Shown: positions 1,738 through 61,098, numbered from the stretch's first letter. The stretch is DNA of 64,000 nucleotides from Nitrosopumilaceae archaeon (GCA_965214835.1 CBDCCK010000002.1:2272001-2336000); one strand, 5' to 3'. The notes: generated by a model from the sequence alone, not told the origin. Made by a program: numbers and translations.

Positions 1738-2331
1738 TTTACCAACAGGCTGTTAAAGACGGGCAGCAGCTCATCAAGCGTGTGATAACGTGAATTTACG
1801 CCCATCGACGTATGTTCATCATGATGGAAGCTGATGCCTGCACGATAGTGATTCAGAGCATTTCCGCCCTCAAATGCGCTTACCGTTTTCCCGTCACGCG
1901 TCATCTCCCTGAAGCCCTCCCCGTAGTTGCCGTACTGAGAACCAAAAACTTCTTTGATATATTCTATCTCATCTTCAATCTCGTCAAGAGGAACAACACG
2001 ATACTCGGCCCAAACCACAAATCCCTCGGAGTGCTTCAATTCGTAGTTGGTCACGTTTTCATTTAATACAAAGGTAGTCGGAACAAACTGCATCCTCATC
2101 TTGCAGCCTGAAGGTTTGCAGACATTGTCTGCATACAGCAGTCGCTGTCCGTCGGGAATGTATGTGGGCATCCAGTCCTCAATGTGGAACCCTGTTCCGG
2201 GGGTTATGGAGTATTTTTCATGCTGCGTTGCAGGCAGTCTTATCAGGTTGTCAGGGCCGACATCATCGGGGGTTATATCGCTGCCCATGATCTTTTCATA
2301 GTAGGGCCACGGGGGAGGGTATCTTGCAAGT

Positions 2332-3747
2332 CAGTACTTCCTAGATGTACTTTTGCAGACCCGACACGGCACCTCCGCTACTTTCCGCGATCGTTTACAA
2401 ACGAGTCGGCCGCATCGACAATGCACGCGACAAACAGCATCATGGTAAACCCCTTCCCTCCTGCAAATCCGTCCCACTTGGATTCCACGTCTATGAACAC
2501 GGCAGTCCTCCACAGGTTGTACAGTATGACAGACATATAGAACAGCAGCAGCCTGACGACCGGGGAATTGCTGCACGTCTTGCCCATTATCCCCTTGATC
2601 ACCCTGAACCCGGTCTCGATTCCCCACCGACTGCGGTACTCCTCCGGTATCTGCTCAATGACTGCCTCTGCACTTTTAGCAGACATGTTGGTGGCAAAGA
2701 CCAGATACCTGTCGGCTATGGTCTCTTCTGCCTTGTCCTTCTTTGCTGCTGCCGTGCCGTCCTTTTCTACCTCGTCCTTTTCCACAATGACTAGCCTGAA
2801 TGTGGCGCTCTTGCCGTCCTTGTTGGTCATTGTATATTTTGATACCGCACCGCGTTCTCCGCGGTCATGCTCCTCTATTGCCGCCACTATCCTCCTGTTC
2901 TTGACGGCAGGCATGATGTAGCTGCCCGTGCTTGTTTCTGCAGCCCTCATGCAGTCCACGTTAAAGAACCCGCGGTCATACAGGAACGTCTTGATCCTCA
3001 TCCCTGATCTGGACGCCTTGCGGATCATTTTAGGCACGAAATCGGCCAGTTTTGCCTCTTTTGGAAGCTGCAGCGAGGAAAGCACGAGGTCAGACCCGTC
3101 ATCTGATCCTATTCCGTGCATGGTAATGTGCGAGAGAAACGTCGACGTGCCGTTCTTGGGCTTTGACTTTCTGGCGATATCCTCCAGGCCCTTGCCATAG
3201 TATTCCACGTCGGTAACGTCCACTGCCACGACGTCCGTGTTGTGCAGCATGCCTGACCTGCGGGCGCACCTTACCGTATGCTGCAGCATGGAGCTGCACC
3301 ACTTTTGCGCATCATCCAGGCTGACGCCCCGGATCGCCTTTAGGATCCAGTCCGGACTAGGCGTACGGCAACTATACGCGCCGCCCTTGGAGGCAGCCCC
3401 GTCGTCATGCTGCTGCCTGCTGCATTTTGAGGCCCGCCTGCGAAGGTGCGTCACGGCAGATTCTGCAAACATCCTCCTCTCAGACATGAAATATAGAACG
3501 CGCAGTGCGTCGATGTGGTCATACACTGCGTTGCGACTCTTTGAGACGGCCAGCCCGAGCTTGGGAAACCGCCGTCGCAATGTTTTAAACTGTCTCGATG
3601 TTATGTCAAACTGGTGTGCAAACACGTCGTTTTGTGTTACTGACATGATGATGGTTGGCACACCGCCTGATCTATAGTATGATGGTCAAAAAATCTCGGC
3701 AAATTGCGTAATTATCGTGCCTGCAAAAGTACATCGAGGAACTACTG
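2332..3747 (-). mobile_element. ISH3-family insertion sequence, copy A1 (1416 bp)
   Basis: TIRs CAGTACTTCCTAGATGTACTTTTGCAG and CTGCAAAAGTACATCGAGGAACTACTG, a 4-bp TSD (AAGT), and a DDE transposase. Confidence 0.93.
2378..3661 (-). CDS. ISH3/IS4-like DDE transposase (427 aa)
   Basis: Motifs VAVDVT, YDRGFF and YRSRWGIETGFR (Y-x2-R-x3-E signature). Confidence 0.93.
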   Translation of the reverse strand: MPTIIMSVTQNDVFAHQFDITSRQFKTLRRRFPKLGLAVSKSRNAVYDHIDALRVLYFMSERRMFAESAVTHLRRRASKCSRQQHDDGAASKGGAYSCRTPSPDWILKAIRGVSLDDAQKWCSSMLQHTVRCARRSGMLHNTDVVAVDVTDVEYYGKGLEDIARKSKPKNGTSTFLSHITMHGIGSDDGSDLVLSSLQLPKEAKLADFVPKMIRKASRSGMRIKTFLYDRGFFNVDCMRAAETSTGSYIMPAVKNRRIVAAIEEHDRGERGAVSKYTMTNKDGKSATFRLVIVEKDEVEKDGTAAAKKDKAEETIADRYLVFATNMSAKSAEAVIEQIPEEYRSRWGIETGFRVIKGIMGKTCSNSPVVRLLLFYMSVILYNLWRTAVFIDVESKWDGFAGGKGFTMMLFVACIVDAADSFVNDRGK

Positions 3748-4348
3748 AAGTGTGGATCTTTTGATCTCCCGCCCGTCATCGACAAACTCCACGGGAGACG
3801 AGGCACTCAGCACCACAAAGCCATCGCCCTCTCCTCCGGCATCGGGGCCGTCGATGCTGCCGCCTCCGGTTTTTGCCGCCTCCGGCTGCTGTCGGTCATG
3901 GCGTTCTGTTGCCTGTGCTACCGGCACCCATCCTTTTTGCAGCAGTTTTTGCACCGAGCCCTCGCTGATGCATGCAGGCGTTCCGCGCGTGGTCTCCATC
4001 AGCGTCTTTGAATCCCGGCACTGTATCTCGTGTATCGGCACCCCCGCCTCATGCTGTGCCATCGGAGACGGCACCTCTGCCATTGCGCCGAGCGACAGCA
4101 TGCCCGCGCCTGCGACAGAGAGCAACGCAAGGGCAGCCACTACCGTATTCATTACCGTTCTTCAATACTGAAATATTTAAGCGATCCAGAGAACCGGCCT
4201 CCTAGAAATCATCAGCCAAACTATGGATGCGGCGGCAAAATACGTCGAGAAGAGCCGAAAACGTACCAGCAAGCTCAATGATGGCGAAACCATCTAACTT
4301 GACAGCTCCCTCATTTGATTGGTATAGCTGATAAAACACCGTTGTGAC

Positions 4349-16187: not shown

Positions 16188-16203
16188 TTTGAGGTAAGAG
16201 TTT

Positions 16204-17619
16204 CAGTAGTTCTTCGATGTACTTTTGCAGGCACGATAATTACGCAATTTGCCGAGATTTTTTGACCATCATACTATAGATCAGGCGGTGTGCCAACCAT
16301 CATCATGTCAGTAACACAAAACGACGTGTTTGCACACCAGTTTGACATAACATCGAGACAGTTTAAAACATTGCGACGGCGGTTTCCCAAGCTCGGGCTG
16401 GCCGTCTCAAAGAGTCGCAACGCAGTGTATGACCACATCGACGCACTGCGCGTTCTATATTTCATGTCTGAGAGGAGGATGTTTGCAGAATCTGCCGTGA
16501 CGCACCTTCGCAGGCGGGCCTCAAAATGCAGCAGGCAGCAGCATGACGACGGGGCTGCCTCCAAGGGCGGCGCGTATAGTTGCCGTACGCCTAGTCCGGA
16601 CTGGATCCTAAAGGCGATCCGGGGCGTCAGCCTGGATGATGCGCAAAAGTGGTGCAGCTCCATGCTGCAGCATACGGTAAGGTGCGCCCGCAGGTCAGGC
16701 ATGCTGCACAACACGGACGTCGTGGCAGTGGACGTTACCGACGTGGAATACTATGGCAAGGGCCTGGAGGATATCGCCAGAAAGTCAAAGCCCAAGAACG
16801 GCACGTCGACGTTTCTCTCGCACATTACCATGCACGGAATAGGATCAGATGACGGGTCTGACCTCGTGCTTTCCTCGCTGCAGCTTCCAAAAGAGGCAAA
16901 ACTGGCCGATTTCGTGCCTAAAATGATCCGCAAGGCGTCCAGATCAGGGATGAGGATCAAGACGTTCCTGTATGACCGCGGGTTCTTTAACGTGGACTGC
17001 ATGAGGGCTGCAGAAACAAGCACGGGCAGCTACATCATGCCTGCCGTCAAGAACAGGAGGATAGTGGCGGCAATAGAGGAGCATGACCGCGGAGAACGCG
17101 GTGCGGTATCAAAATATACAATGACCAACAAGGACGGCAAGAGCGCCACATTCAGGCTAGTCATTGTGGAAAAGGACGAGGTAGAAAAGGACGGCACGGC
17201 AGCAGCAAAGAAGGACAAGGCAGAAGAGACCATAGCCGACAGGTATCTGGTCTTTGCCACCAACATGTCTGCTAAAAGTGCAGAGGCAGTCATTGAGCAG
17301 ATACCGGAGGAGTACCGCAGTCGGTGGGGAATCGAGACCGGGTTCAGGGTGATCAAGGGGATAATGGGCAAGACGTGCAGCAATTCCCCGGTCGTCAGGC
17401 TGCTGCTGTTCTATATGTCTGTCATACTGTACAACCTGTGGAGGACTGCCGTGTTCATAGACGTGGAATCCAAGTGGGACGGATTTGCAGGAGGGAAGGG
17501 GTTTACCATGATGCTGTTTGTCGCGTGCATTGTCGATGCGGCCGACTCGTTTGTAAACGATCGCGGAAAGTAGCGGAGGTGCCGTGTCGGGTCTGCAAAA
17601 GTACATCTAGGAAGTACTG
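16204..17619 (+). mobile_element. ISH3-family insertion sequence, copy A2 (1416 bp), inserted in a MITE family 1 element (16194 to about 17703)
   Basis: Essentially the same TIRs as copy A1 and an identical transposase, with a GTTT TSD. The flanks rejoin to GTAAGAGTTTGCCCCTCCCGAA. Confidence 0.93.
16290..17573 (+). CDS. ISH3/IS4-like DDE transposase (identical to 2378-3661)
   Basis: Identical 427-aa translation. Confidence 0.93.
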   Translation: MPTIIMSVTQNDVFAHQFDITSRQFKTLRRRFPKLGLAVSKSRNAVYDHIDALRVLYFMSERRMFAESAVTHLRRRASKCSRQQHDDGAASKGGAYSCRTPSPDWILKAIRGVSLDDAQKWCSSMLQHTVRCARRSGMLHNTDVVAVDVTDVEYYGKGLEDIARKSKPKNGTSTFLSHITMHGIGSDDGSDLVLSSLQLPKEAKLADFVPKMIRKASRSGMRIKTFLYDRGFFNVDCMRAAETSTGSYIMPAVKNRRIVAAIEEHDRGERGAVSKYTMTNKDGKSATFRLVIVEKDEVEKDGTAAAKKDKAEETIADRYLVFATNMSAKSAEAVIEQIPEEYRSRWGIETGFRVIKGIMGKTCSNSPVVRLLLFYMSVILYNLWRTAVFIDVESKWDGFAGGKGFTMMLFVACIVDAADSFVNDRGK

Positions 17620-17891
17620 GTTTGCCCCTCCCGAAACTACGGCGTGGTGGGCATGATCATGAAGGCCGCGATCGGCGCCGTCGTCTGAGGAATAATCCCC
17701 TACGGCAGTTTTGAGGCATTTCTGCCATATTCCTTTAATCTTAGATCGTCGTATAAGGTTATGATGCGTGGATTGTGTCATCGCTGCCTGAGCTCAAACG
17801 CCGAGCTTGTGGTGGACAGGGGAAGGATTATGTGCACTGGCTGCCATGAAAAGCAAAACACTAAATCCTGATCCCTGCCACCCTTGGCTAA

Positions 17892-19816: not shown

Positions 19817-20251
19817 ATGCAGGACAGCATGCCTGAAAAAGTCTGGGTGGGCTCGATCTTCATCAAGGACGAGGGCGGGTTTGACATCATCATGCGCGCC
19901 CTGAACCACTACAACCGCCGCCTGCACCGCATCTCTGACAGCCCCGAGATTGCCGGTGCCGGGGCGATGTTTGCCTCCATCCTGCAGTCCGAGTCCGTGA
20001 GGACTGCCCCCCGGCTCAGGCCGATTGCCGACAGACTGCGTGCTGGACTGGCCGACGCATCGGCGCTTGCCGCACTGGAGGACGACATTGAGATCATCGA
20101 AAAGGCAATGGTCTGCTACAGGTCTGACTCCCAAAAGGCCATCGAGAATGTCGACGGGTACTACACAGGGCTGGCAGAGGGAAACAAATACTATCGGCAG
20201 GACGTCAAAATTCTGGACGACTGCATCGCGAGGCTAAAAAGGTACGACTAG
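19817..20251 (+). CDS. Hypothetical protein
   Basis: Clean helical ORF in operon-like position after the NAD kinase gene. Confidence 0.7.
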   Translation: MQDSMPEKVWVGSIFIKDEGGFDIIMRALNHYNRRLHRISDSPEIAGAGAMFASILQSESVRTAPRLRPIADRLRAGLADASALAALEDDIEIIEKAMVCYRSDSQKAIENVDGYYTGLAEGNKYYRQDVKILDDCIARLKRYD

Positions 20252-21846
20252 CCTGCCGAGGCTGCCACAAACGCCTCAAATGCCCCCTCGGGATATCCCG
20301 GACGGCTGTTGAACTCGGGATGGTACTGGACCCCAAGGTAGAACCTGTGATCTGGAATCTCAAGTATCTCCATTCTCTTGCCCCCGTCGCTCTCGCCGGT
20401 AAACTGCAGCCCCTTGTCTGAGAACTCCTCGATGAAATCCCGGTTGATCTCGTACCTGTGCCGGTGCCGCTTTGATATGACCTCAGAGTCGTAGATTTTC
20501 CTTGCAAGCGTGTTGTCCCTGATCTGAATGTCGTTTGCACCCAGCCTCAGTGAGCCCCCCATCTCTGATACGCCCCTTTGCTCCGGCAGCAGGTCTACCA
20601 CCGGATGGCTTGTCTGGGGGTCGATCTCAGTGGAGTTGGCATCGGCGTATCTGCATACGCTTCTTCCAAAGGCCACCGCGGCCAGCTGGAATCCAAAGCA
20701 GATTCCAAGATACGGCGTGTTGCTCTCCCTTGCAAAGTCTGCGGCCCGTATGATTCCCTCCGATCCACGGGTTCCAAACCCTCCGGGCACCAGGATTCCG
20801 TGGTGGCCGCTTAGCTTTGAGAGGTCTCCTAGCTCGTCTGAGTCAATCCAGTCGATTGACACTGATCTTCCCACCTTTGCACCCGCGTGCCTGAGGGCGT
20901 GGTTTACGCTGACATAGCTGTCTGCCAGCGTAACGTACTTTCCGACCATTGCGATGCTTATCTCCCCGTTGGAGTGGTTCGTCATGTCGTGTACAATCCT
21001 TGCCCATCGCTCCCACCCATCGGCGGTGCCTACCAGGCCCGCCTTGCCGAACTTTTTGAAGATTGCGTCTATGACTCCCTGCTCGTACAGGATCTGGGGC
21101 ACCATCAGGATGGACTTTACGTCATGGCACGATAGGACGTCCCCTGTACCTACGTTGGTAAACAGTGCGATTTTTTGCTTGGTCTTGTCCTGCAGTGGCT
21201 CGGCGCACCTGACTGCCAGCAGATCCGGCTGGATGCCGATTCTCCTCAGTTCCTGAACGCTGTGCTGCGTGGGCTTTGTCTTTTGCTCCCCCACCACGTC
21301 TAGCGACGGCGCCAGTGTGACGTGAACGAAAATCACGTTTTCTGCCCCCTCCTCGACCCTGATCTGCCTTAATGCCTCAAGAAACGGCAGGCTCTCGATA
21401 TCGCCCACGGTTCCGCCGCACTCTACGACTAGGACATCCAGTCCCTCGTTGCATGCGACCGTCCTGACGCGCCGCTTAATCTCATCAGTTACGTGTGGGA
21501 TGATCTGAACGCAGGCTCCAAGGTACCTTCCCTTTCTTTCTGCCTCTATCACGCTTGAGTATACCTGTGCTGTGGTTATGTTGTGGGACTTTGGAATGTC
21601 CTGGTTTAGGAACCTCTCATAGTTGCCTATATCCATGTCGCACTCCCCCCCGTCGTCGGTTACAAAGACCTCTCCGTGTGCAACGGGATTCATGGTTCCC
21701 GCATCATAGTTCAGGTACGGATCAATCTTGATGCATGACACCCTTTGGTTTGATAACTGCAGCAGCTTTGCAATCGAGGAGGCCGTGACGCCCTTTCCGA
21801 GGCCCGACATGACGCCGCCTGTTACGAAGATGAACTTTGTCTGCAC
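20248..21846 (-). CDS. pyrG: CTP synthase
   Basis: Motifs TGGVMSGLGKG, GGTVGDIES, GICFG, RHRHRYE and QYHPE. Confidence 0.98.
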   Translation of the reverse strand: MQTKFIFVTGGVMSGLGKGVTASSIAKLLQLSNQRVSCIKIDPYLNYDAGTMNPVAHGEVFVTDDGGECDMDIGNYERFLNQDIPKSHNITTAQVYSSVIEAERKGRYLGACVQIIPHVTDEIKRRVRTVACNEGLDVLVVECGGTVGDIESLPFLEALRQIRVEEGAENVIFVHVTLAPSLDVVGEQKTKPTQHSVQELRRIGIQPDLLAVRCAEPLQDKTKQKIALFTNVGTGDVLSCHDVKSILMVPQILYEQGVIDAIFKKFGKAGLVGTADGWERWARIVHDMTNHSNGEISIAMVGKYVTLADSYVSVNHALRHAGAKVGRSVSIDWIDSDELGDLSKLSGHHGILVPGGFGTRGSEGIIRAADFARESNTPYLGICFGFQLAAVAFGRSVCRYADANSTEIDPQTSHPVVDLLPEQRGVSEMGGSLRLGANDIQIRDNTLARKIYDSEVISKRHRHRYEINRDFIEEFSDKGLQFTGESDGGKRMEILEIPDHRFYLGVQYHPEFNSRPGYPEGAFEAFVAASAG

Positions 21847-29162: not shown

Positions 29163-30880
29163 AGACCTTATGCGTAAACGAAATTAGCGGCGATGCCCCC
29201 GGCGCACGGGCTACAAATGAGGCAAGTCAGGGCCGGCGCACGCGCGACTGTACCTTACAACGTTGAAAATATTTGATCAAAACCACAACTATTTTCAGAC
29301 GATTGATTTAGATCCGGGATCCATTCTCGCATAAGAGTAATGGCAAAGTCCGAGACCGAGCAGATACGACTGCTGAAGAAGAGAATCGAGCAGTACGAGA
29401 AGGAGAAGGTACAGGACAGGAAGGAGAAGGCGCGGGACAAAAAGAAGATCAAGAAGTATGAGAAGAGGATCAAGAGGCACGAGAAGAAGAGCAGGCAGGA
29501 CAGGAAGGAGAAGGCGCGGGACAGGACGGAGAGGATGCAGTACAGGAAGGAGATCAGAGAGTACGAGAAGAAGAGCAGGCAGGACGGCAGGAGGCAGGAG
29601 CGGGATCAGGAGAGGATAGGGCAGCTGGAACAGCAGCTGGACGCCGAGCGCCGGATGTGGCCCGCAACCTGGGATGACGACAGGCGCTCCGCGGACAACG
29701 CCGCCCTCATGCACAGGCTCGAGGTGCTCGATGACATAATCGGTGGCGGGTCCCTGCAGCCCACCACGTCGATGAACCTCCGCCAGTTTGACTACATATA
29801 TGACCGGTTTACGAAGCTTGCCAAAAAGCACACAGAAGGCCCCCTGTTCTCAGAAGACGAGGACAACTTGCCCGGAAACCGGTGCAAGCTGTCCTACCGC
29901 CACGCCCTGCTGATGTCGCTGATGCGCAAGTACGGAAACCCGACACAGGAGCAGCTTGCGGCGTTCTTCGGCATAGACCAGAGCACCGTATGCAGGTACC
30001 TCAGGTATTGCGACATGATATTTCTCAAGATACTGCCCACGCCGGACGCCGTATCGCGAAAGATACGAAACGCCCGCACGATCAAGGAAGTCAAGAAGAT
30101 CGTCCCGGATCTGACCGTGATTGTAGACGGCACGCACATCGACATACAGCGCCCCACAGACAAGGAGCCAAGAAAGGAGGCATACTCTGGCAAGAAGAAG
30201 AGCTTTACGCGCAACACCCAGGTGATTGCCGACAAGAAGGGACTGGCGATGTATGCAAGCAAGTCGGCGCCCGGAAGCACGCACGACCTCACCATGATAA
30301 AGAACAACCCACCGGATCTGGGAATCCTGACTGCCAGGATGCGCAGCAACAGAAAGCACCCCGAGGACGAGAAGGTAAAGATGTTCTCTGATCTGGGATA
30401 CATGGGAATCGAGGAGGTGTATCCCGGGGCCACATCCGTGCAGCCCGACAAGAAGCCAAGGAAAGGCAAGCTTACAAAGAAACAGAAAGCGCAGAACAGG
30501 AGGATAAGCAGCAAGAGGGTGACAGTAGAGCACGCCATAGGACGGATAAAGCAGTACAAGCGGATGCGTGATCCGTACGACGGGACCGCCGAGGAGTTCG
30601 ACAGGGAGTTCCAGGTGACGGCCGGGCTTGCCAACTTTAGGCTGCTGTGGGACAAGCGGAACAAGAAGCTCATGCATGGGTTCTGATACCACGATACGGA
30701 GCGCATTGCGGCGCCACACGATGCCGCACTATACTGTAGTTTTTACCAGCTGTAATGGCTCGTAGCTGCACTATATACGGACTCTGCCGCCCTCATACAC
30801 GTCATGTGATGCCGTCAGCCTTGCATGTATGGCCGGCCACCGTCGGAATATTTCGATCCGGTCGATTACGCATAAGGTCT
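29163..30880 (+). mobile_element. IS5-family (ISL2/DDE_Tnp_4-like) element (1718 bp)
   Basis: Perfect 15-bp TIRs AGACCTTATGCGTAA and TTACGCATAAGGTCT, with a 3-bp TSD (ATG). Confidence 0.9.
29340..30686 (+). CDS. DDE_Tnp_4-like transposase with a charged N-terminal extension
   Basis: Motifs LAAFFGIDQSTVCR, IVDGT, YSGKKK, DLGY and RVTVEHAIGRIK. Confidence 0.92.
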   Translation: MAKSETEQIRLLKKRIEQYEKEKVQDRKEKARDKKKIKKYEKRIKRHEKKSRQDRKEKARDRTERMQYRKEIREYEKKSRQDGRRQERDQERIGQLEQQLDAERRMWPATWDDDRRSADNAALMHRLEVLDDIIGGGSLQPTTSMNLRQFDYIYDRFTKLAKKHTEGPLFSEDEDNLPGNRCKLSYRHALLMSLMRKYGNPTQEQLAAFFGIDQSTVCRYLRYCDMIFLKILPTPDAVSRKIRNARTIKEVKKIVPDLTVIVDGTHIDIQRPTDKEPRKEAYSGKKKSFTRNTQVIADKKGLAMYASKSAPGSTHDLTMIKNNPPDLGILTARMRSNRKHPEDEKVKMFSDLGYMGIEEVYPGATSVQPDKKPRKGKLTKKQKAQNRRISSKRVTVEHAIGRIKQYKRMRDPYDGTAEEFDREFQVTAGLANFRLLWDKRNKKLMHGF

Positions 30881-57746: not shown

Positions 57747-59114
57747 CAGTAGTTGAAAATGTACCCCATAAATCCGTCTAGCCGGGATCATGCCGCCGTC
57801 GCCCCACCCCGATCCTGTCGGCATCCGGCGCACGGAGGCAGCACGAATACAGGACCACGGCATACATCAGAGTCAGCAGCGCCATGACGCGGGTCTTTGG
57901 GTCTCCCGAGTCCCTCATTGTCAGCCATATGTTGCATACTGCAAGCGACATGTAAAACAAAAGCACACGCAGGACAGGATTCCTGCTGACGGTCCGCGGC
58001 CTGACGCTCTTGGCACAGCGGTATCCGGTCTCTATGCCCCACCTGTTCCGGTACTCTCTTGTCACATGGCAGAACAGCTGCCGATAGCTGCAGCAGCGCA
58101 CCGTGGTCGCAAACACGTGGTATCTGTCAAAGACGTTCTTTGCCTTGGACCTTGGGATCTTCTTGATGACCAGCGTGAACGTGAACTCTTTGCCGTCTGA
58201 CGACCTCATGGTATACCTTGATACTGCCTTTCTCTTGCCGCGGGCGCGCTGCACTATGGCCCTCTTTATCCCCGGCGTCTTGACTGCGGGCATGATGAAT
58301 GCAAACCCGGGTTCGGATATGGCATCCATTACATCGACCGAAAAGAACCCCCTGTCAAGCAGGATGATGCTGCGCCTTGACCCGAGCCTGGGCGTAATGC
58401 CCAGATCGGCGCATTTTTTGAGCATATTACGCACCAGATCGGCCTGTTTGTCGCCCTCGGTCACCATGCGGCAGGCCGTATGCACGTCGGCGCCGGCCTT
58501 GGATGTCAGCTTGCATGTCATGTACTGCTCATAGTTGATGGTGCCCCTGTCGCGCTTTGACTTTACCAGGTGCTTTATGTCGGTTTTCTTGTCGTATCTG
58601 GGCAGCTTGGTCGCGTCTATGGCAAGGACAGGCGCCTTGTGGCTCCTTTGGAGGGAGCAAAGCTGCCTGCCCACCGCCTCGGCGGCCGTGTAATGCAGCA
58701 TTGCATCGCACCTTTTCTCCATCGTGGACAGTCTTGCGTGCCCCAGCTTTGCAAGAAGCCAGGCCGAGCTGGGCACCGCGGCCCCGGCGCCTTCTGATGC
58801 AAGAAGTGCAAGCTTTTGGGCGGTATAGTGCGCACATGCGGAACGCTCCGACATGGATGCAATCAGGCGGGAGGCGTCTTCCAAGCCCCACATGGCGTTG
58901 TGTCTTGAGGAGAACTTGATTTTCAGCATGCCTACTGCGGTAACCAAGAATTTAAATCCGGCCTCACCGTACCTTGTGTGGTGTTTCTGTTGGGTTTGGT
59001 TCATTATCAAGGTAGACAGGAACACCGCTGTTTATAGCTCGATTGGTGAAAAAATCATGTCAACTTGTTCAAAACATTCAGACACTTAAAAAGGGGGTAC
59101 ATTTTCAACTACTG
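57747..59114 (-). mobile_element. ISH3-family insertion sequence B (1368 bp)
   Basis: Perfect 21-bp TIRs CAGTAGTTGAAAATGTACCCC and a 5-bp TSD (CTTGT). Confidence 0.93.
57778..59025 (-). CDS. ISH3/IS4-like DDE transposase (415 aa)
   Basis: Motifs LAIDAT, LDRGFF and YRNRWGIETGYR. Confidence 0.92.
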   Translation of the reverse strand: MFLSTLIMNQTQQKHHTRYGEAGFKFLVTAVGMLKIKFSSRHNAMWGLEDASRLIASMSERSACAHYTAQKLALLASEGAGAAVPSSAWLLAKLGHARLSTMEKRCDAMLHYTAAEAVGRQLCSLQRSHKAPVLAIDATKLPRYDKKTDIKHLVKSKRDRGTINYEQYMTCKLTSKAGADVHTACRMVTEGDKQADLVRNMLKKCADLGITPRLGSRRSIILLDRGFFSVDVMDAISEPGFAFIMPAVKTPGIKRAIVQRARGKRKAVSRYTMRSSDGKEFTFTLVIKKIPRSKAKNVFDRYHVFATTVRCCSYRQLFCHVTREYRNRWGIETGYRCAKSVRPRTVSRNPVLRVLLFYMSLAVCNIWLTMRDSGDPKTRVMALLTLMYAVVLYSCCLRAPDADRIGVGRRRHDPG

Positions 59115-59707: not shown

Positions 59708-60862
59708 CTAATTCAAACGTGTAAGATTCTTTGGTAGCATACCCTTATTCATATCTGACACAGCATGAATGGATGAAAATTGCATGCTGATCGCATCTAT
59801 TTTGGCCATGTTACATAGCAACTTCTTCATGCCCTCAGTTAATGACTCCATGCGTTGATCAAAGAAGTCACTACCGATATCCATTATTATCGAACCTCGA
59901 ACCTTTTCATAATCACCCAGACCAATATCATGTTTGTCAATTCGATCTATTGCCTCTTTGGCAAAATACTGGATGAAAAATGGATATTGATCGGCATCGT
60001 CTATAATCAAAGAAATCAGATCGTCTGAAAATGTCCAGTATGTTTTTTCCAGTGGTTTGGTTATGGCCTCCTTTGATGCCGGTTTTGTCAGATTGGAGAT
60101 TTGTAGGAACTTGAACATTCTTTCAGAATAGGATCGTGCATTTTTGACGTTGATTGACATAGGCAAGCCAGACAGAACAAGGGAGTACCTAAAGCCCTTG
60201 GCCTGCACCTGATTTATTGCCCAATAAAGGCCGAAAGCGTATACCATCCGTTTTGTTTCATGTTCTGGATTGTATGAAATTCGTCTAACAGAAACACTGC
60301 GCCTTCATAGTTTTCCCGTACAAACTTTGATTTTTTGATCAAATAGTCTGCAATCTGATCCTCCACCGGTGCATTGGAATCCGGGTTGCAAGAGGGCTCG
60401 TAGGATATCACTCCTAGAATCCCTATGTTTTTTGACTTTAGATAGCTGACAGCTGATTGGATCTTTCCCTTGGTTCTTTCCGTCTTTGAAAATTCCTAGA
60501 TTGCAGTGTCAGGATCATGCCTTATTGTCTTGAAAAATTCTGTCGGATCAGAGTGCTGTTCGCTGTACTGCAGACGCAGTATGGGCAAAAATCCCTTATC
60601 GGTACAAATCTCTGCAAACTTATTCAGCAGTACAGTCTTTCCCATACCCCTGATGCCCTGCATCAGCAGGTTTCCAACCTTCCCTGCTTTGACGTCTTTG
60701 GATTCCAGCTGGCCGCGGTGGCCTTTGGAACTGCATCAGCAGGTTTCCAACCTTCCCTGCTTTGACGTCACGCAGTATGTGAGAGAACTTGTCAATCTCA
60801 TGGTCACGCCCTGCCAGATATGGCGGCATGAGTCCAGATCCTAGATTAAACGGATTGTGCAT
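59708..60862 (-). pseudogene. Archaeal ATPase (AAA/STAND-like) pseudogene
   Basis: NPF...PPYLAGRD, Walker A GIRGMGKT (restored when the 73-bp insertion is removed), Walker B FLLDEFH and YPFFIQ. Also an internal TAG and a frameshift. Confidence 0.85.
60658..60769. repeat. Repeat-spacer-repeat unit: two identical 39-bp direct repeats around a 34-bp pyrG-derived insert
   Basis: CTGCATCAGCAGGTTTCCAACCTTCCCTGCTTTGACGTC at 60658-60696 and 60731-60769. Bases 60696-60730 are the exact reverse complement of 20664-20698. Confidence 0.9.
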
Positions 60863-61098
60863 GCTTTCTGTTGTGCTCTGCCTAGATAAGCTTGTGAATC
60901 CCTGGTTTGTGTGGGGTGGCGTCCCCTGCCTGCCATGTATGAAAATCATAAATCCGCGCCTAGCCGGTCGGGGACAGGCGACACCGCACCTTGCTTTCCA
61001 AGCAATGCCTAAATACCCCCACAGTAGCGATCAGATATATCGGGAGACCGGTCTCCCCTTGAGGACACCCCCCTCAGTTCCCGGTCTCTTGATTATCC

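Follow-up and report, generated by a model that had tools for sequence, protein, structure and literature searches.

Within a 64,000-nt stretch of DNA from a Nitrosopumilaceae archaeon (GCA_965214835.1; hereafter the window, C2:2272001-2336000 of a 3.22-Mb genome), a short piece of pyrG recurs inside a P-loop NTPase gene, and its donor in pyrG begins right after the triplet TTC. The locus raises the question of whether this triplet is the footprint of a protospacer-adjacent motif (PAM), left when a CRISPR adaptation complex selected its prespacer, or a coincidence of three bases. As set out below, the former is very probable, the resident type I-G Cas4/1-Cas2 machinery having captured a piece of the cell's own pyrG and integrated it off target.

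The pyrG donor and its ectopic copy

CTP synthase (PyrG) is encoded by an intact 532-aa frame on the minus strand (20248..21846), which is single-copy in the genome (one tblastn match) and whose 582 relatives by tblastn all belong to Nitrosopumilaceae and other ammonia-oxidising archaea. The protospacer of 34-35 nt lies at 20664..20698 on the plus strand, opposite minus-strand codons for FGFQLAAVAFG in the glutamine amidotransferase domain, and TTC stands directly upstream of it at 20661..20663 (+); the plus strand of 20659-20698 thus reads GC TTC TTCCAAAGGCCACCGCGGCCAGCTGGAATCCAAAG. The 35-nt string has two exact matches in the window, at 20664-20698 (+) and, as its reverse complement, at 60696-60730 (-), with 0 mismatches, and 100 shuffles put the expected number of matches at 0. 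In a side-by-side alignment, the donor goes on with GAA on the TTC side and the insertion site with CTG, so that the match ends exactly at TTC, without ambiguity; the reading of the first-pass annotation, that the donor runs GC-TTC|sequence and the match stops right at the triplet, is borne out. On the far side, one extra base (C at 60696; 20698 in the donor) is also the last base of the duplication that surrounds the insert, which leaves an insert of 34 or 35 nt and a duplication of 39 or 38 nt. The same annotation had cautioned that a 3-bp match may be due to chance, and rightly so: TTC occurs on either side of a random 36-mer in 2.85% of 200,000 draws. Taken alone, the triplet is weak evidence, and it is the other ectopic events in the genome that make it strong.

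The copy of pyrG sits between perfect direct repeats of 39 nt with a start-to-start spacing of 73. Copy 1 of this target-site duplication, or pseudo-repeat, occupies 60658..60696 and is 100% identical to copy 2 at 60731..60769; the integrated spacer fills 60697..60730 on the minus strand, with its PAM-proximal end at 60730, and reads TTCCAAAGG... on that strand. Both lie in the remains of the target gene (60214..60949, minus strand), which encodes an AAA_16/STAND-like P-loop NTPase with the Walker A motif GIRGMGKT and a wHTH tail; a paralog at C2:1.728 Mb matches AAA_16 with 37.6 bits (cut-off 32.6), and an overlapping open reading frame adjoining that paralog matches a MarR-type HTH. Besides the interruption by the 73-nt unit, the gene contains a frameshift and an in-frame TAG, both of which persist when the 73 nt are removed in silico. 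An empty site was identified in a genome of the same genus (G002, contig C39), where an ortholog of 79% identity holds one copy of the 39-mer, lacks the insert and continues into the downstream flank. Unitigs that cross both insert junctions were found in sequencing runs of three studies (X1, X3 and X7), which rules out an assembly artefact; these Logan unitigs are built at k = 31, shorter than the 39-nt duplication, and the empty allele is accordingly not visible in them.

In its dimensions, the unit lies at the margin of what the resident array contains, a point against the reading favoured here. The insert of 34-35 nt falls at the lower edge of real spacers (35-41 nt, mode 37/36), 7 of 147 of which are 35 nt long and none 34 nt, and the duplication of 38-39 nt is 2-3 nt longer than the 36-nt CRISPR repeat. 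The best ungapped likeness of pseudo-repeat to CRISPR repeat is 17/36 positions, and the hairpin predicted for the former is unlike the 7-bp stem of the latter. The pseudo-repeats are not the resident CRISPR repeat, and the unit is no member of a functional array or of a self-targeting crRNA locus.

The window also carries mobile and repetitive sequences. A perfect pair of 21-nt inverted repeats (57747-59114), 1.5 kb from the ectopic unit, surrounds a 415-aa frame (57778-59025, minus strand) and is probably an IS element. Two 100% identical 1424-nt elements in inverted orientation, at 2326-3749 and 16202-17625, have terminal inverted repeats of about 34 nt and bracket 12.4 kb, in what looks like a composite-transposon arrangement. 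At 29377-29628, a repeat rich in lysine, glutamate and arginine shows periods of 84 and 21 nt; this element occurs in at least 15 places on the chromosome.

The resident CRISPR-Cas system and its PAM

A Cas4/Cas1 fusion and Cas2 are encoded at C2:2480012-2482006, 146 kb beyond the end of the window and upstream of the array. The fusion matches the cas4g_cas1g profile (NF049935) with 754.8 bits (cut-off 560) over positions 2-546 of 546, and the same frame is also matched by a Cas4 model. Downstream of the array, an IS630 transposase is followed by Cas3g (TIGR02621, 630.3 bits, cut-off 400), a Cas8g2-like frame (Csx17-type large subunit), Cas7g/Csb1 (TIGR02570, 140.7 bits, cut-off 38) and the Cas5/Cas6 fusion Csb2 (TIGR02165, 210.7 bits, cut-off 45). 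The score of the Cas8g2-like frame (TIGR04106, 100.8 bits) is below the cut-off of 125, this being the sole match for the frame, which stands at the expected gene position. The genome holds one Cas1 only, and searching it returned no Cmr2, no stand-alone Cas6, and no second Cas1 or casposase. Taken together, these gene assignments mark the resident system as type I-G and as the only one in the genome, and so supply the cas subtype that the first-pass annotation had called for, with profile matches above curated cut-offs for the Cas4/Cas1 fusion, Cas2, Cas3g, Cas7g and Csb2.

The array (C2:2482178-2492954) is composed of 148 identical 36-nt repeats ending in ATTGAAGC. Its 147 spacers measure mostly 37 nt (54) or 36 nt (45), followed by 38 (18), 39 (16), 35 (7) and 40 nt (4), with one each of 26, 41 and 51 nt; repeat-spacer units are correspondingly 73 nt long in 54/147, 72 nt in 45/147 and 74-75 nt in 34/147. 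The cas4/1-cas2 genes and the array directly follow a ribosomal-protein operon (L3 ... L6; locus L001, C2:2470879-2482006), and it is the IS630 transposase that stands between array and cas3g. An orphan mini-array at C2:135821-136373 has 8 variant repeats and one duplicated spacer.

That annotation had also proposed that the PAM be derived from protospacers of the real spacers. One spacer, sp71, has a perfect 36/36 protospacer with a TTC flank on a 3.1-kb contig of the same-genus genome (G002:C129), in agreement with TTC/TTN. Spacer sp41 matches contig C1 at 36/37 positions (C1:6366-6401), with TTC beside the matched part, or GTT if the mismatched first base is counted; sp50 has a match of 87% identity flanked by TTT. 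The last spacer of the orphan mini-array, b7, matches the chromosome at 34/36 positions 5.5 kb away and is flanked by TGC, not TTN. Self-matching spacers that persist in an array are expected to be defective, which leaves sp71 as the only unbiased, foreign protospacer (n = 1). Among the 147 array spacers, none matches the chromosome perfectly at a site whose PAM is correctly placed. A TTN PAM on the non-target strand, a trait of type I-G, is thus seen for sp71 (TTC), for sp41 (TTC beside 36 nt), for sp50 (TTT) and at 7/9 of the ectopic donors described below, with b7 as the exception.

Wider searches added little to this set. No match to a phage collection was obtained with the whole array and contig C1, and the protein targeted by sp71 had no relative among viral contigs and, among genome contigs, only its own record. 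The array as a whole and its first 2.7 kb, each searched against 120 family genomes, returned other arrays and the single sp71 match, with only 2 candidates per genome scored, so that misses are likely. The first 1.8 kb of the array, searched against 4 same-genus genomes, gave no further protospacers, other arrays and sp71 being the only matches across these searches. The 329 spacers of a genome from another genus (G088), compared with G000 and the retrieved loci, yielded one perfect self match (TTA, on the opposite side only) and two partial matches and were left out of the PAM evidence. The perfect match is that of spacer g88_10 (38/38, G088:C1:975632-975669), whose sole TTN is the TTA opposite the expected side.

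Spacer sp41 targets a glycosyltransferase gene of contig C1 (13 kb, with IS66 and IS110 transposases) and looks like a slipped, tolerated self-targeting spacer, one base off TTC. Contig C1 was considered as a plasmid or virus and rejected as such, given its glycosyltransferases, IS66 and IS110 transposases and laminin-G repeats.

Ectopic units across the genome

The chromosome was scanned for two-copy exact repeats of at least 28 nt at short distance. Periods of 72-76 contained 48 pairs, whereas nearby periods not divisible by 3 had 0-2 pairs each. Low-complexity and tandem-coding repeats were removed, as were both arrays and a cluster of palindromes at 34-36 kb; with copies in duplicated DNA collapsed, 42 unique ectopic units were left between C2:204691 and C2:3161274, the pyrG unit being E32 among them. 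The palindrome cluster (C2:34438-35720) comprises about 22 copies of a perfect palindrome of 24-26 nt (AAAATGTGGCAA(T)ATTGCCACATT) at irregular spacings of 48-74 nt and is not a I-G unit. All 42 units are single-spacer units and none has expanded to an array. Their duplications are most often 36 nt (14) or 37 nt (11), the rest spanning 31-42 nt; their inserts are 36 nt (14), 37 nt (7) or 38 nt (5), the rest 30-43 nt; and their periods are 72 (15), 73 (9), 75 (7), 74 (3), 69 (3), 71 (2), 76 (2) and 79 (1). A handful of edge units with duplications of 31-32 nt may be background. A second empty site was found in G002 for E59, and the loci of E41 and E57 are rearranged in that genome.

The junctions have a signature of their own. 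Among the 68 junctions of 34 core units, T is absent at -2 (0/68), G occupies +1 in 32/68 and C occupies -4 in 31/68, a common bias that argues for one enzyme. The target sites are only marginally like the CRISPR repeat (mean 13.9 vs 13.5 matches, P = 0.049), and their slightly higher hairpin propensity (P = 0.004) is confounded by a GC content of 56.7% vs 52.6%. In-frame periods are enriched (25/42), and since the excess is not specific to coding sequence (13/26 coding vs 12/16 non-coding), we make no claim of selection.

Several distributional features were recorded alongside. At E03, E09, E15, E22, E23, E36, E40, E49 and E58, an in-frame unit adds 24-25 codons and no stop to a long open frame, and some proteins may, to judge from these frames, carry spacer-derived inserts. 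Directly upstream of cas4/1, a stretch of 150 kb (2.33-2.48 Mb) contains 10/42 units where 2 are expected (permutation P = 0.003 for any 150-kb window), and the first 700 kb only 1 of 42; this crowding may reflect either nearness to the cas locus or a greater tolerance of the region for insertions. Beyond this genome, 400 kb around a 330-repeat array of G088, whose repeat is 31/36 identical to the resident one, contain 4-5 candidates, whose duplications measure 34-39 nt and whose periods are 70-73.

Donor flanks and competing explanations

For 12 inserts, the chromosome offers a match of 28 nt or more besides the insert's own copies. Three of these donors, all without TTN, are doubtful, that of E20 because repeat-like sequence of its own surrounds it and those of E16 and E50 because they are partial or resemble paralogs. 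TTC lies directly 5' of the protospacer on one strand in 5/9 credible donors, namely E32 (pyrG), E41, E52 (a multi-copy IS), E57 and E59, and TTG in 2/9 (E40, and E38 with a first-base mismatch), so that TTN is directly adjacent in 7/9; a TTG displaced by one base fits 2/9 (E15 and E09). TTN is found on either side of a random genomic 36-mer in 11.9% of draws, and the probability of 5/9 TTC by chance is P = 2e-6, or P = 1e-5 if the doubtful donors are counted as misses (5/12). The first-pass claim that TTC supports PAM-dependent acquisition therefore holds up on wider ground than the single triplet, being backed by 5/9 donors with TTC, by the TTC of array spacer sp71 and by the type I-G assignment.

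Of the 9 self-donors, three (E40, E38 and E09) map no more than 6 kb from cdc6/orc1 and the gene for a DNA polymerase small subunit (C2:902180-906409, locus L093). The region is likely a replication origin and possibly a hot spot of prespacer supply. A provirus was considered for the 902-906 kb self-donor region and rejected, as the region holds cdc6/orc1 and the DNA polymerase small subunit.

The insert could be a real product of off-target Cas1-Cas2 integration and its TTC still coincidental, the prespacer having been taken without PAM selection. Such a coincidence starts from the 2.85% a-priori chance of TTC, and it gains from the Geobacter sulfurreducens I-G system, in which only about 50% of unique new spacers carried TTN (PMC6547450). 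It gains as well from E16, E20, E50 and b7, none of which has TTN and which, with the one-base slip needed by two of the 9 credible donors, also count against a PAM footprint. The 8 credible donors other than E32 speak against it, since 4/8 have TTC (P = 4e-5) and 6/8 TTN (P = 6e-5), which implies a high prior of PAM selection for each donor; so does the pyrG match itself, which stops exactly at TTC. We regard a coincidental triplet as improbable.

A distinctly smaller probability attaches to a near-identical pyrG on incoming DNA of a close relative as the donor, in which case the flank read here may differ from that of the true source. The inserts of E38 and E40 each differ by one base from their resident donors, and pyrG is conserved enough for the protospacer to be found at 33/35 positions in the same-genus genome G002 and at 31/34 in a Nitrosopumilaceae MAG contig (L022). 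Against this, the resident gene matches at 35/35 and the nearest other available genome at 94%, and TTC would in all likelihood also flank the protospacer in a conspecific donor. Least credible of all is a non-CRISPR process such as template switching in repair or the insertion of a mobile element that duplicates a long target, with TTC meaningless: although the duplication is 38-39 and not 36 nt, the target resembles the CRISPR repeat only weakly (17/36) and the window has many IS elements, the 42 units with unrelated inserts share a CRISPR unit length, a 36/37-nt duplication mode and a junction bias, ectopic donors are enriched for the I-G PAM, and the genome has no second Cas1 or casposase.

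Probable course of integration and survival of the self-derived spacer

The anatomy of the unit, its empty counterpart in G002, the subtype of the cas genes and the enrichment of the PAM over independent events are shown by the data and fit a PAM-selected capture of the cell's own pyrG, for which we infer the following order of steps. The type I-G adaptation complex, consisting of the Cas4/Cas1 fusion and Cas2, would capture a fragment of pyrG, in which the Cas4 domain would recognise 5'-TTC (on the 3' overhang, 5'-GAA-3') and make its cut directly on the inner side of the triplet. Next, the Cas1 domain would insert the prespacer of 34-35 nt in the P-loop NTPase gene rather than at the leader-repeat junction, by staggered strand transfers 38-39 bp apart (the repeat-length ruler being 36 bp), and gap repair would duplicate the intervening stretch to yield the 73-nt repeat-spacer unit.

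On the minus strand, the unit reads pseudo-repeat, TTCCAAAGG..., pseudo-repeat, and the host NTPase gene is likewise on the minus strand, so that its transcript would contain the spacer in the orientation of a crRNA directed at pyrG, where the protospacer has a correct PAM. The unit is nevertheless presumably harmless, Csb2 being unlikely to cut a crRNA from it, because its pseudo-repeat is not the CRISPR repeat. It had been proposed in the first-pass annotation that a spacer against pyrG would be lethal in a real array and harmless at an ectopic site. Self-derived inserts make up 9/42 ectopic units and 1/147 array spacers (sp41, displaced by one base; Fisher P = 5e-6), counts that fit autoimmune purging in the real array only and agree with the proposal; its other part, that the ectopic unit escapes processing, keeps the standing of a presumption drawn from the pseudo-repeat.

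Relation to known adaptation systems

Off-target, or 'neo-CRISPR', integration by over-expressed Cas1-Cas2 of the type I-E system of E. coli was reportedly described by Nivala, Shipman and Church in 2018 in Nat Microbiol. The pyrG unit resembles that case in having a spacer-sized insert and a duplication of about repeat length at a non-array genomic site, made by the resident integrase, and differs from it in that the natural units number 42 in a single archaeal genome, with a Cas4-containing I-G system and a PAM at the donors. For natural off-target cases, one report speaks of 'circumstantial evidence ... in two other species' (10.1101/148544), and off-target Cas1-Cas2 integration is also treated in a citing paper (PMC7054753).

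The selection of TTC has closer parallels in two I-G systems. In G. sulfurreducens, the type I-U/I-G Cas4/Cas1 fusion selects TTN and produces spacers of 36 bp, and interference is licensed by each of the four TTN triplets (PMC6547450). The fusion architecture, the TTN PAM, the mostly 36-bp spacers and the origin of most of them in non-chromosomal DNA are shared with the present system; the difference is that the G. sulfurreducens spacers went into an array carried on a test plasmid in E. coli (PMC6547450), whereas the sites here are ectopic, chromosomal and in the native host. In Methanosarcina barkeri, another archaeon with a I-G system, Cas4/1 cuts just upstream of 5'-GAA-3' on the overhang, equivalent to TTC, with a slip of +/-1 nt, and the PAM end is placed by the leader-proximal repeat (PMC10504553). 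GAA/TTC cutting and one-base slips would be common to both archaea; the M. barkeri study was conducted in vitro with a leader-repeat plasmid, and smears of non-specific integration are mentioned in it and left unmapped (PMC10504553). These accounts of I-G Cas4/1 fusions are in line with the annotation's statement that TTC/TTN is a PAM of type I systems, I-G included (PMC6547450, PMC10504553).

Like self-targeting array spacers, the pyrG insert is copied from an essential gene of the cell and has a correct PAM; unlike them, it lies outside an array, without CRISPR repeat or leader. The event is thus of a known kind, off-target spacer integration, and its natural abundance is undocumented in the literature searched, where no report of dozens of natural ectopic units in one genome, or of any in an archaeal I-G system, was found.

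Implications

Natural cases of off-target integration have until now been few and circumstantial. With somewhat more confidence than doubt, we read this genome as a natural archive of I-G Cas4/1-Cas2 captures and missed integrations, made up of at least 42 units, largely free of interference and common to at least one other large-genome genus. The archive would be largely free of selection because its units are probably never made into crRNA. If so, it reports a PAM preference of TTC over TTG with slips of +/-1, a 36-bp ruler and a junction bias without T at -2 and with G at +1, together with a self fraction of about 21% (9/42), donors clustered near cdc6/orc1 and an integration-rich 150 kb upstream of cas4/1 (10/42). 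Dozens of clean units, with two empty sites confirmed, would amount to a field record of adaptation before interference filtering, covering the rate and source of self-DNA uptake, PAM fidelity and the target features tolerated by the integrase.

For the organism, the units show that coding genes can acquire insertions through CRISPR adaptation itself. If the archive is real, ectopic integration gives rise to in-frame insertions of 24-25 codons and to gene breaks, and could seed new arrays; with the trait present in at least one other genus of large-genome relatives, it would be a steady mutational force in these archaea.
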